Of a DNA stretch of 64,000 nucleotides, positions 2 through 51,431 are shown piece by piece. The number at the start of each line of letters is the position of its first letter. The stretch's first letter is position 1. The notes beneath the pieces were generated by a model. It worked only from the letters and a program-made list of their open reading frames with translations, was not told where the DNA came from and made no database searches. The stretch is from Chloroflexota bacterium. GTDB taxonomy: Bacteria; Chloroflexota; Dormibacteria; Dormibacterales; Dormibacteraceae. The position numbers and the translations under genes are program-made. The DNA lies in NCBI GenBank assembly GCA_005880795.1, contig VBGP01000022.1:17347-81346 (forward strand), given 5' to 3'.

Positions 2-391
2 ATCCAGCCGTGGCATTTCATCCTGGTCCGCGAGCGCGACGCGCTCCGCAAGCTTGGCTCGCTGATCCGGACCGGTCCCTACACAGCGAACGCAGCGGCG
101 GCCGTGATCGTCGCGTACGAGAAGGAGAAAGGCGAATTCGGCATCTCAGATGCAAGCCGCGCCATCCAGTCGATGATGCTGGCGGCGTGGGGGGACGGTG
201 TCGGTTCGAACTGGACCGGTTTCGCCGGCCGCCTCGAAAACGTGCGCGTGGAGTTCGGCCTCCCCGACGTCTACGACGTCCTGGCGGTGGTCCCATTGGG
301 CTACCCGAAGCAAAAGGTCATCGGCAAGAAGAAGCGCAAGCCCCTGGGCCAGGTGGTCTCAGCGGAGCGCTTCGGCACGCCCCTGTCTTGA
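2..391 (+). CDS. Nitroreductase family protein (5' end cut by window edge)
   Basis: The frame is open from base 2: IQPWHFILVRERDALRKL...AVVPLGYPKQKV. This matches the C-terminal part of the FMN nitroreductase fold. Stop TGA at 389-391. Confidence 0.8.
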   Translation: MQPWHFILVRERDALRKLGSLIRTGPYTANAAAAVIVAYEKEKGEFGISDASRAIQSMMLAAWGDGVGSNWTGFAGRLENVRVEFGLPDVYDVLAVVPLGYPKQKVIGKKKRKPLGQVVSAERFGTPLS

Positions 392-1060
392 GCGGACCGC
401 GCGCCCGATCCGGAACGGCGCGTCGAGGATCGCCAGGAGCACGATGCCGATGAGGCTTGCCGAAAGCAGATAGAGGGGCCACGGGCCAAGCTCATCCAGC
501 AGCGTCGGGCTGGATGGTTTGCTGCGCAGGTACATGTAGTCGCTGCCGGTCACTGCATCGACCAGCCCGACAAACCCGGTGTAGGCGACCGTCACCAACG
601 CCACCTGGGCCACCGCCCACGGCCGCGGGTGCAGGCGCATGCCGGCCACCAGCACCAGCGCCGCTGCCACCACGCCACCGTGCGCGATGTAGTACTGGAG
701 GTACGGGTAGCTCGGAAAGTGCTGCGCCAGGTCCGGCGTGAGCAGCGCCTGGAGGGTTCCGGCGAGCCCCCAGAAATACGTGATCTCTACGAGCAGCTGC
801 CGGCGGGTCCAGAGCGCAGCCGCCGCAACGAAGATGGCCACGTCGCACAGCTGCAGGGGCAGTGGCTGCGCTCGCTGGCCGGGCTCTCCTCCGCCTGCCG
901 CGAGGAAGACCCACCAGCTGACCTCATCCGCGACCAGGATCAGCGCCAGGCCTCGAAGCCACAGGCCAGGCCGCCTACGCGCGAGGACGACAAGGCCCGC
1001 GGTGGTGGCTGCGATGACGAGCAACGCGCCGGCGTGCTCGGCCGTTAAAAGCTCAGTCAT
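359..1060 (-). CDS. YwaF/TIGR02206-like integral membrane protein
   Basis: 233-aa ORF with multiple hydrophobic helices and motifs LQLCD, YFWGLAGTLQALLTPD and YLQYYIAHG. Its start overlaps the stop of the upstream DCC gene by 4 nt (ATGA). Confidence 0.7.
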   Translation of the reverse strand: MTELLTAEHAGALLVIAATTAGLVVLARRRPGLWLRGLALILVADEVSWWVFLAAGGGEPGQRAQPLPLQLCDVAIFVAAAALWTRRQLLVEITYFWGLAGTLQALLTPDLAQHFPSYPYLQYYIAHGGVVAAALVLVAGMRLHPRPWAVAQVALVTVAYTGFVGLVDAVTGSDYMYLRSKPSSPTLLDELGPWPLYLLSASLIGIVLLAILDAPFRIGRAVRSRQGRAEALR

Positions 1061-1455
1061 CCGCAGTCCGACCCTGGTTCATCGCACTCCGGCGTCACCC
1101 CCAGGCGACGGAAGCCGGATCGCCGGGACGCAAACCAGCGATAGAGGAGCTCCTCGAGGGCAGCCACCGGACGGAGTCGGTACGGCGCGGCAAACGCCGC
1201 CCAACCCGTTCCAAGCTCAGCCAGGACTCGGTTGAGCGCCGCTGCGCCCTCGCGCCGGCTCCCGTCTGGGTCGACGCTCCAGGCCGCCCGGTCCGCCTCC
1301 TCACGCGTGAGGCCGTAGCGCTCGAGCGCGCCTGGTTTCTGGTTGGCGATGACCTGCACACGGCCGGCCGGGTCGCGCCGGCGGATCCAGCGCGCCATGC
1401 GTGTTCAAACGCCTCAAGTCCCGTCGAAGAGCAAGACCAGCACCGGCTCGGTCAT
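1057..1455 (-). CDS. DCC1-like (DUF393) thiol-disulfide oxidoreductase with two in-frame TGA codons at the CxxC positions (candidate UxxU selenoprotein; alternative is a pseudogene)
   Basis: The track ORF 1057-1398 lacks the family's N-terminal motif. Extending upstream in frame gives MTEPVLVLLFDGT-TGA-GV-TGA-TRMARWIRRRDPAGRVQV. This aligns to the DCC consensus LFDGxCxLCxxxxxxxxxRD, with TGA (1414-1416 and 1405-1407) exactly at both Cys positions. The ATG at 1453-1455 overlaps the TGA stop of the upstream gene (ATGA). Confidence 0.6.
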
Positions 1456-2264
1456 GCCATCGCCCAACCCGCCAGCCCGAGCAGCGAATAGAGCACGGCG
1501 TTGAGGTCACCATGCACGATCGCCATCGTCCGGAGGTCAAGGGCGGGAACCGGCAGCACGCGCGCGAGGGCATAGTCGACCCCGAGGAGCATGGGTACGA
1601 CGACGGCTGCTGAGGAGATCGTGAGCAACCACCGGGCGCCCGCCACCCGCTGTCGCGGCGCGATGAGGAATCCGGTGAGAGCGGCGTTGGTCAGGATTCC
1701 GGCGGCCAGCAGAAACGGCCCGATCACGGTCAGCGCCGCAGTCCCGGTGGCGATGCCGGTCGCGGTCACAGGCGTGCCCAGCACGACGAGCATTCCCGCC
1801 GCCGCGCAGATCCCGCGAAGACGGCTCGAGCGATCGCGTAGGGCTTCAAACGCAAGGGCCGCCATCACGGTCGCCGCGAACCCGGCGTAGTGGAAATGCA
1901 CCGCCGTCAGCTCGACGATCGGGGCGCTGTATCCGAGGCTGATCCCGCCGCGCGCCGCGACGAGCCAGCCCGCCCCGACAGCCAGGAACCCGACCGCGGC
2001 GGCAGGCAGCAGGTGCCCCGGCGCGATGGACCGCGACTCGACCAGCTCGCTCGCGCCGGCGAGGCCGGCGATCGCGCACACCGCCAACCAGCCCGCGGCG
2101 AGGAGGGCGGCCCAGCGGCCGGCGGGGACCAGGAACGAGGCGATCACCAGGACGGCGCCGAAAGGCTGCAGCAGCCTCGCCGCGCGGAGCAGCTTTCTGG
2201 CTCGGCGGGCCGACAGCGGAACCAGGCGAAGGCCCAGGGGCGCGACCGCGACCGGCGCGAGCAT
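1452..2264 (-). CDS. YndJ-like polytopic membrane protein
   Basis: 270-aa hydrophobic ORF containing ELTAVHFHYAGFAATV, which resembles the YndJ family. Its stop overlaps the extended DCC start. Confidence 0.6.
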   Translation of the reverse strand: MLAPVAVAPLGLRLVPLSARRARKLLRAARLLQPFGAVLVIASFLVPAGRWAALLAAGWLAVCAIAGLAGASELVESRSIAPGHLLPAAAVGFLAVGAGWLVAARGGISLGYSAPIVELTAVHFHYAGFAATVMAALAFEALRDRSSRLRGICAAAGMLVVLGTPVTATGIATGTAALTVIGPFLLAAGILTNAALTGFLIAPRQRVAGARWLLTISSAAVVVPMLLGVDYALARVLPVPALDLRTMAIVHGDLNAVLYSLLGLAGWAMA

Positions 2265-9624: not shown

Positions 9625-10200
9625 ATGCCGACGCCCGAAAACGTCATCTTCTTTGCCACCTCGGCGGAGCTCAGGGCATGGTTCGAGGCCAACCACGACA
9701 CCGCGACGCAGCTCTGGCTCGGCTATCACAACAAGCGGTCCGGCCGAGCCTCGGTCACCTGGCCCGAAGTCGTCGACCAGGAGCTGTGCTTCGGCTGGAT
9801 CGACAGCGTGCGCTACTCGCTGGGCGACGACAAGGGGGCTCAGCGCATCACTCCCCGGCGGATGCGAAGCGTCTGGAGTGCAGTGAACATCCGGCGCTTC
9901 GCCGAGCTCGAAAAGCTCGGACTTGTCCACGCCAGCGGCCGCGCCGCATTCGCGGCACGCGACGAGGCGAGGTCGCAGATCTACTCCTACGAGAACCGTT
10001 TGCGGGGACTGGACCCGGAGCAGGAGGCGGAATTTCGTAAGCACAGATCCGCGTGGAAGTTCTTCGAGTCGCAGGCACCCTCCTATCGGAAGACCGCCGC
10101 ATTCTGGGTGGTCAGCGCCAAGCGCGACGAGACCCGCGTACGGCGATTGCGCAAGCTGATCGACTTTTCAAAAGACGGCGCAAGGATTCCACCTTTCTAG
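9625..10200 (+). CDS. YdeI/OmpD-associated family protein
   Basis: ATG at 9625 inside the long artefactual track ORF 8104-10200. Contains FFATSAELRAWFEANH, WLGYHNK and CFGWIDS. Confidence 0.8.
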   Translation: MPTPENVIFFATSAELRAWFEANHDTATQLWLGYHNKRSGRASVTWPEVVDQELCFGWIDSVRYSLGDDKGAQRITPRRMRSVWSAVNIRRFAELEKLGLVHASGRAAFAARDEARSQIYSYENRLRGLDPEQEAEFRKHRSAWKFFESQAPSYRKTAAFWVVSAKRDETRVRRLRKLIDFSKDGARIPPF

Positions 10201-51397: not shown

Positions 51398-51431
51398 GTG
51401 GTGGGCCGGGAGGAGTGGTGGGCCGGGAGGG
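51398..51431. repeat. Tandem 17-bp duplication of the tRNA-Tyr 3' end
   Basis: GTGGTGGGCCGGGAGGA (51398-51414) is immediately followed by GTGGTGGGCCGGGAGGG (51415-51431). The second copy is the acceptor/T-stem 3' strand of the tRNA. Confidence 0.85.

Follow-up and report, generated by a model that had tools for sequence, protein, structure and literature searches.

Within a 64,000-nt stretch of contig VBGP01000022.1 from a Chloroflexota bacterium (hereafter the window), we analyzed a minus-strand gene of the DCC1-like family in which both cysteine positions of the DxxCxxC redox motif are occupied by in-frame TGA codons, making it a candidate selenoprotein gene with two selenocysteine (Sec, U) residues. 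The mechanically called open reading frame (ORF), 1057-1398, encodes 113 aa and starts three codons past the second TGA, the codons after which read TRMARW. Extended upstream, the full-length gene comprises 132 codons plus stop at 1057..1455 (-), running from an ATG at 1455-1453 to a stop TGA at 1059-1057, with further TGA triplets at codon 14 (UGA-1, 1414..1416 (-)), the first or attacking cysteine position of the motif, and at codon 17 (UGA-2, 1405..1407 (-)), the second or resolving one. Its minus-strand translation over 1455..1057 begins MTEPVLVLLFDGT-stop-GV-stop-TRMARWIRRRDPAGRVQV, both internal stops being TGA, and the string TGA-GGC-GTT-TGA at 1416-1405 places two UGAs two codons apart inside the redox motif. 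A preliminary description of this locus, made from the sequence alone, had given the start codon, both TGAs and the called ORF at these very positions, all of them correctly.

The gene overlaps both of its neighbors. Upstream lies a YndJ-like gene (1452..2264 (-); Pfam YndJ, E=1.9e-42) whose stop overlaps the ATG of the long form as ATGA, an arrangement that the preliminary description had adduced for the longer reading and that we confirmed. Downstream follows a gene for a TMEM164-related integral membrane acyltransferase (359..1060 (-); Pfam TMEM164, E=1.3e-46; TIGR02206, E=3e-41), the ATG of which (1060-1058) overlaps the DCC stop, again as ATGA. A TMEM164-related homolog stands downstream of DCC in 75 related loci, a YndJ-like one upstream in only 33.

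Profile searches revealed that the region upstream of the called ORF belongs to the domain. With cysteine written at both TGAs, the protein matched the Pfam family DCC1-like (PF04134; curated gathering cut-off 27.8 bits) with 65.0 bits over profile positions 1-108 of 113, compared with 39.2 bits over positions 14-108 for the short ORF alone. The upstream extension thereby gains 26 bits and, as the match begins at profile position 1 in the long reading and at position 14 in the short one, homology spans both stops. PF04134 was the sole Pfam match of the protein, which does not belong to PF00578 (Prx-like), and NCBIfam held no model matching it. The window motif D11-G-T-(TGA)-G-V-(TGA) corresponds to DGTCGVC or DGTCGPC in homologs, with the cysteines exactly at both stops, in agreement with the N-terminal DCC1/DUF393 match proposed earlier.

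A protein search returned 187 homologs. Most of the closest (65-86% identity) are likewise called as 113 aa; a minority, 128-167 aa long, show CGVC or CGPC at both TGA positions. DNA was read for 10 genome loci and 80 metagenome loci, and the codons were counted in the 89 loci with enough upstream sequence, window included, which comprise 70 unique nucleotide versions. These loci come from soil metagenome-assembled genomes (MAGs) and metagenomes, the MAGs of the genome loci being labeled 'Chloroflexi bacterium CF_', 'Candidatus Dormiibacterota' and, once, 'Candidatus Acidoferrum'. Sites 1 and 2 read TGA/TGA in 74/89 loci, TGA/TGC in 14/89 and TGC/TGC in 1/89. Site 1 is thus TGA in 88 loci and TGC in one, and site 2 TGA in 74 and TGC in 15. 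TAA or TAG occurred at neither site in any of the 89 loci, nor did any of them carry a further stop or frameshift in the N-terminal segment, and the TGA forms are conserved over approximately 70 distinct nucleotide sequences with 61-100% protein identity. The ortholog alignment that the preliminary description had suggested as a check therefore yielded TGA or TGC only, and the chance coincidence it had judged unlikely became more so, the identical TGA pair having turned up time and again in separately made assemblies. An error of sequencing or assembly at 1405-1416 can be discounted altogether, since NCBI MAGs, JGI, ENA and Logan, as independent sources, all show these codons.

Gene callers and public databases annotate the window gene and most of its relatives as starting beyond the motif, and in the window an ATG does lie three codons past the second TGA, at 1398. 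Taken at face value, this would make the locus a genuinely short protein of 113 aa without redox motif, or a decaying pseudogene. The comparative data already contradict such a reading, to which we assign next to no credence: 13 N-terminal codons are conserved at the amino-acid level with synonymous change, and the two sites hold TGA, never TAA or TAG. Many relatives, moreover, have Leu, Val or Cys in place of the annotated start, Met20 (RCARW, for instance, in L007, L065, L083 and L089), including loci with TGC at this position, which is unable to initiate translation, so that re-initiation there is not the conserved mode of expression. The additional N-terminal disruptions in relatives by which, according to the preliminary description, a re-initiated pseudogene would be recognized were absent.

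At the other end of this segment, from the upstream in-frame stop to codon -5, neither ATG nor GTG nor TTG occurs in 37 of the 84 Sec-form loci. They include L004-L009, L031-L033, L036, L038, L041-L042, L044, L047, L049 and L052 as well as L056, L060, L064-L068, L075-L077, L079 and L085. ATA (mostly) or ATC takes the place of the start codon of the other loci, at a position homologous to window 1453-1455 (-) and 9-12 nt past the stop of the upstream gene (...VLG-stop), which suggests AUA/AUC initiation or termination-reinitiation coupling.

The codons immediately before the first UGA provided a direct view of how the segment is expressed. The eight codons encoding LVLLFDGT (1417..1440 (-)) bear the marks of translation under purifying selection: mean entropy at codon positions 1, 2 and 3 amounts to 0.33, 0.00 and 0.94 bits over the 70 unique sequences, with the Leu and Val codons varying among synonyms and F, D, G and T invariant. 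Such period-3 conservation implies that the segment is translated in frame, which is possible only if the UGAs are decoded; the comparison thus shows that translation runs through both UGAs. The immediate context of the UGAs is equally distinctive. Immediately 5' of each stands a U, which rare codons provide. Before UGA-1, ACT is used in 63/70 unique sequences, as opposed to 8% of nearby Thr codons. A final T marks the codon before site 2 in 54 of 57 sequences with TGA there and in 4 of 13 with TGC (Fisher p=2e-6), the TGC sequences having regained the usual GTC; GTT accounts for 6% of Val codons. Co-variation of this codon with the state of site 2 is hard to explain unless UGA decoding is selected for efficiency.

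A neighbor-joining tree calls for a single change at site 1, situated at the base of the clade, and for at least eight at site 2, a distribution indicating that Sec is fixed at the attacking position and that Sec and Cys are nearly interchangeable at the resolving one. The toggling between TGA and TGC at site 2 is also what would be expected of nearly equivalent codons, as in SECIS-dependent recoding (SECIS, selenocysteine insertion sequence) in which a UGA is read as Cys. tRNA-ReC inserts Cys at SECIS-associated UGA codons, and where it is present either or both UGAs might be read in this way; tRNA-ReC-like genes occur in approximately 56% of genomes with UXXU-type hydrogenases versus 2.3% of other Sec-type genomes (PMC13582414, 2026). 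Applied to the DCC gene, the second UGA (most plausibly) or both would be read as Cys by such a SelC*-type tRNA via SelB, and the mature protein would be UxxC or CxxC, not UxxU. We regard this as improbable. Site 1 is TGA in all 88 clade members and in three distant Sec forms described below; UGA there is thus not equivalent to UGC and probably means something other than Cys. The context of site 2, in addition, is itself selected when site 2 is TGA.

Downstream of the UGAs, synonymous variation is suppressed in codons +7 to +20 after UGA-1 (1354..1395 (-); Mann-Whitney p=2.3e-6). Synonymous entropy is 0-0.38 bits within this zone and typically 0.5-1.8 bits in the codons before and after it. 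Several codons are frozen (Ala GCG, Gly GGC, Arg CGT and Val GTG, each in 70/70; Leu CTG in 63/63), and the sole free position, the third base of codon +10, coincides with the variable loop base of the first of two tandem hairpins over which the zone extends, as found with RNAalifold and by direct counting of pairs. Counted from the U of UGA-1, hairpin 1, the candidate SECIS, occupies nt 21-46 (1371..1396 (-)). An A (1373) bulges from its 10-bp stem, and its loop of 5 nt (1386-1382) reads AUCCG in the window and GUNCG in most relatives, opening with G-U in 59 of the 70 unique sequences. Pairing holds in 97% of cells over these 70 sequences and drops to 29-41% once the 3' partner is shifted, and the folding energy of the hairpin is -16.9 kcal/mol in the window (median -17.8). 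Hairpin 2 (1351..1369 (-); nt 48-66 from the U of UGA-1) consists of a 7-bp stem and the pentaloop CGUGU at 1362-1358; despite one G.A stem mismatch in the window it is paired in 96.5% of cells. Its loop is identical in 70/70 and uses the Arg codon CGT, which makes up 7% of Arg codons in four neighboring genes. Selection hence acts on the UGAs, on their 5' context and on this downstream RNA segment of 42 nt.

The published bacterial SECIS (bSECIS) consensus calls for a loop of 3-9 nt with a G within its first two positions, an upper stem of 4-16 bp, a UGA-to-loop distance of 16-37 nt and a minimum free energy (MFE) of at most -7.5 kcal/mol (PMC13188914). Hairpin 1, with its loop starting 27 nt after UGA-1 and 18 nt after UGA-2, lies within these bounds for both UGAs, subject in the window to a caveat on the G rule that is taken up below. 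A scan for TGA followed by a hairpin with a CGUGY loop through all DNA examined hit DCC genes only, and Rfam reported nothing relevant, either for the whole window at gathering threshold or for 1300-1470 at a permissive threshold. The downstream stem-loops pointed out in the preliminary description held up in part. ACACG (1404-1400) and CGTGT (1362-1358) are present and the inner stems are conserved; the outer ACACG/CGUGU helix was rejected, as it is pairable in 90%, its variable positions change uncompensated and its 3' arm coincides with the invariant hairpin-2 loop. A single long alternative hairpin fared no better, with just 84% of cells paired and the structure broken in the commonest variants.

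Downstream RNA structures can stimulate stop read-through in general. One might therefore imagine SECIS-independent read-through by a near-cognate tRNA (Trp, Cys or Arg), aided by the hairpins and without any Sec. This we consider very improbable. Both UGAs lie on catalytic Cys positions and alternate only with TGC, the signature of Sec/Cys exchange, whereas Trp or Arg at these positions would destroy the motif. Moreover, two low-efficiency events in a row would leave very little product, yet the arrangement is kept in 74 loci.

Some observations weigh against Sec insertion directed by these hairpins. In the window, the loop of hairpin 1 begins with A-U, so that a G at the required place depends on opening of the closing G-C pair. 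Hairpin 2, which has the best-conserved loop, lies 51 and 42 nt from the two UGAs, outside the usual range. The folding z-score is -0.83 for the single sequence, not significant in DNA of 65.5% GC, and MFE, computed over nt 13-50 or 13-70, fails to tell Sec forms and Cys forms apart; we consequently dropped folding energy as evidence, in line with the caution about GC-rich folding voiced in the preliminary description. The stems are nearly invariant and thus offer little true compensatory covariation. ARAGORN found no tRNA-Sec in the 64-kb window or in loci L001-L090, and tblastn with E. coli SelA, SelB and SelD gave no match in 537 kb (the window plus 473 kb of loci). As the sel genes need not be linked to the DCC gene, their lack in these 537 kb is uninformative rather than negative. 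A literature search, finally, found no link between Dormibacterota and selenocysteine.

To place the clade within its family, more distant members were retrieved. Searched exhaustively with the Cys-form protein P0004, a set of 1.84 billion representatives yielded 1367 family members at E <= 1e-3, and approximately 27 of the best 150 are N-terminally truncated. DNA was read for six truncated distant representatives (L105-L110). Three of them carry TGA in the motif: L105 (44% identity) has FDGW-TGA-GV-TGC and is thus UxxC, and L106 (41% identity; FDGT-TGA-GF-TGA) and L107 (39% identity; FDGG-TGA-DF-TGA) are both UxxU. L108-L110 proved to be ordinary CxxC forms with a mis-called start, showing that truncated annotation alone is no proof of Sec. 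Annotation assigns lengths of 98-113 aa to each of the 12 relatives that could be detected for the L106 type. Sec forms are accordingly not restricted to one clade, and a CGUGY pentaloop is met in them repeatedly. L105 and L106 retain hairpin 2 with an unchanged CGUGU loop, and Cys forms lack it; in L106, two of its stem positions are altered yet paired (G-C to G-U and G-U to G-C). L107 has no hairpin 2 and instead forms a 6-bp hairpin with a CGUGC loop at the position of hairpin 1.

Cys forms served as controls. In distant CGPC forms, the hairpin-1 region reaches only -2.8 to -10.2 kcal/mol, and the AGR(V/I) segment is encoded with CGC or CGG, never with CGT-GTG. The Cys forms nearest to the Sec clade (L101, L102 and L010) still have hairpin 1 in large part or complete, L101 matching the Sec-clade consensus exactly, and have no hairpin-2 loop. 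They are basal to the Sec clade on the neighbor-joining tree; the protein is too short to decide. Hairpin 1 may have predated Sec and been co-opted, or these three may represent Sec-to-Cys reversions with a fossil SECIS.

The invariant CGUGU loop on a rare codon, its occurrence in subfamilies of only about 40% identity and its replacement by a CGUGC hairpin in a third raise the tentative and rather doubtful idea of a bipartite SECIS, made of two tandem hairpins that each have a G-U-containing pentaloop. Hairpin 2 would be the actual SelB-binding element, situated at a non-canonical linear distance of 42-51 nt from the UGAs and brought within range by the folded hairpin 1. If so, Sec could be inserted efficiently at both codons, and Dormibacterota, an aerobic soil phylum for which no Sec use is on record, would possess a diselenide enzyme; expression of the overlapping gene for the membrane acyltransferase would in turn depend on selenium.

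Irrespective of which hairpin is bound, the selenoprotein reading advanced in the preliminary description gained support from the alignment of TGA with Cys, the conservation of TGA, purifying selection upstream and the constrained stem-loops directly downstream. We consider it very probable that this is a genuine recoded gene with Sec at codon 14, and probable, with somewhat less assurance, that Sec occupies both codons 14 and 17.

An AlphaFold (AF2) model of the Cys-form P0004 (predicted local distance difference test score 75, predicted template modeling score 0.71) has the order beta1, CxxC at the N-terminus of alpha1, beta2, alpha, beta3, beta4, alpha and then C-terminal helices. In a phmmer search of the PDB, LVLLFDGTCGVC aligned with the active site LVDFFAPWCGPC of thioredoxin 1v98 in a weak match (E=0.096). 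Foldseek against the PDB gave none at E<=0.001, and its weak matches were almost all proteins of the thioredoxin superfamily. These results hint at a domain of thioredoxin type in which the motif opens alpha-1. Within the same family, Arabidopsis DCC1 acts as a thiol-disulfide reductase and is reported to reduce the complex-I subunit CA2 by direct interaction (PMC7598583). Together with this activity, the model and the weak thioredoxin matches lead us to infer dithiol/diselenol exchange of the thioredoxin type, with Sec14 attacking and residue 17 resolving.

In the mechanism we propose, the DCC gene (1455..1057 (-)) would give rise to a 132-residue, thioredoxin-fold DCC1-like thiol-disulfide oxidoreductase with the motif D11-G-T-U14-G-V-U17. 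SelB bearing Sec-tRNA(Sec) would dock on the stem-loop region just 3' of the UGAs, and Sec would be inserted first at codon 14 and then, nine nt on, at codon 17. Sec14, at the N-terminus of helix alpha-1, would act as the attacking nucleophile, and Sec17 (Cys in 16% of lineages) would resolve the intermediate, giving a diselenide or a selenylsulfide. Likely clients or partners would be the membrane proteins of the overlapping neighbor genes, chiefly the TMEM164-related acyltransferase. A membrane-associated client might be expected from the translational coupling to the TMEM164-related gene and from a conserved C-terminal tail, PE-C124-DEPGSD-C131 (CX6C; 1063..1086 (-)). The columns of this tail are invariant or nearly so in alignments of both Sec and Cys forms; the Pfam DCC1-like domain does not reach it, the model is of low confidence over this stretch, and the tail could be a second redox pair or a metal site. 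UGAs left undecoded at codons 14 and 17 would probably also cut translation of the coupled TMEM164-related gene, and expression of this acyltransferase could therefore depend on selenium.

Among known systems, a close parallel is offered by the UxxU proteins of the SelL/Prx-like type (PF00578). For SelL, a diselenide has reportedly been demonstrated experimentally; for the DCC protein it is a prediction. The two share UGAs 9 nt apart, an RNA structure within the coding region just downstream, the coexistence of UxxC and UxxU forms in one family and, as predicted for DCC, a thioredoxin fold in which both cysteines of CxxC are replaced by Sec (SelL, Shchedrina et al. 2007, as cited in PMC2398784; Prx-like UxxU, Table 1 of PMC13188914). 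They differ in family (PF04134 for DCC), in source, SelL being aquatic or marine and DCC coming from soil MAGs of Dormibacterota type, and in the RNA, with two constrained tandem hairpins in DCC as opposed to one described SECIS in SelL. The DCC protein would accordingly work like the UxxU Prx-like/SelL proteins without belonging to that family.

Sec-containing thioredoxin, glutaredoxin and DsbA-like proteins (UxxC) place Sec at the first, nucleophilic position at the N-terminus of alpha-1, as predicted for DCC, and also have widespread Cys homologs and a SECIS (in DCC a candidate one) directly downstream within the ORF. In contrast to these normally single-Sec proteins, the second position is also UGA in 84% of the DCC clade. 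With the Cys-type DCC1-like proteins (Arabidopsis DCC1, Bacillus YuxK-type, DUF393), which use Cys, the clade has in common the Pfam family, the position of DxxCxxC and the domain length; it adds the C-terminal CX6C tail and the coupling to a TMEM164-related gene. The DCC element resembles the E. coli fdhF SECIS in following the UGA directly as a stem-loop whose apical loop contains G-U; this G-U is G23/U24 in fdhF and lies at +22/+23 in hairpin 1, counted from UGA-2. The DCC element differs from that of fdhF in showing no sequence similarity to it and in having a bulged A instead of a bulged U and a second hairpin. The UXXU-type Group 4 [NiFeSe] hydrogenases also have two UGAs in CxxC, a mosaic distribution of motif types and a single downstream SECIS region proposed to serve both UGAs, as for DCC (PMC13582414, 2026). 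Their Sec residues, however, are metal ligands in a large enzyme of mostly anaerobic phyla, whereas those of DCC would form a small redox motif.

In a catalog of May 2026 comprising 119 families and subfamilies of prokaryotic selenoproteins, entries for DCC1-like, DUF393 and PF04134 are missing, and the UxxU motif is confined to Prx-like proteins, an FmdB-family protein and a putative metal-binding protein of mercuric-reductase type (PMC13188914). Neither BSepDB nor the deep-Sep paper mentions the DCC1-like family, and the literature held nothing relevant linking DCC/DUF393 with selenoproteins; the groundwater MAG survey of Deng et al. may mention the family. DCC1-like is thus most likely a new selenoprotein family, of the thioredoxin-fold Cys-to-Sec type with an in-ORF SECIS. 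DCC1-like/DUF393 would thereby join the bacterial selenoproteins, as only about the fifth family with a UxxU motif, and public databases systematically mis-annotate it as fragments of 99-113 residues (DUF393 or DCC1-like) without an active site. Sec decoding would also be implied in soil bacteria of Dormibacterota type. Such organisms are regarded as aerobes. Selenoproteins are rarely retained in aerobes (PMC13188914). As a natural experiment, the clade further contrasts Sec with Cys in the resolving role, with approximately 70 variants, toggling at one site, a co-varying context codon and two hairpins, and the data bear on how one RNA region may serve two UGAs nine nucleotides apart.

Additional scans yielded several minor observations. 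ARAGORN called a 98-nt 'tRNA-Gly(ccc)' with the anticodon at 37 in L087 (4768-4865 (-)); the segment is coding-like and gave no Rfam tRNA or tRNA-Sec match at E<=1, and we dismissed it as a false positive. In the window, ARAGORN also called a tRNA-Glu(ttc) at 9868-9942 (-), and Rfam at gathering threshold reports only a tRNA-Tyr at 51416/51419-51498. Other in-frame TGAs in the window with coding signal on both sides, sought by a scan based on GC content at third codon positions, were unconvincing (5741 (+) and 23081 (-)). The CGPC-type DCC genes (L091-L100), which are paralogs or orthologs, have a conserved context of their own, in the order response regulator/ParA-like, RcpC, T2SSF (Tad pilus), DCC and PAP2 phosphatase. 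In L108, the Cys-form DCC gene is followed by a pyridine nucleotide-disulfide oxidoreductase gene (759-2161; Pyr_redox_2/Pyr_redox_dim), and in L109 it overlaps a gene of the FMN_red family; both neighbors are possible electron donors for DCC proteins.

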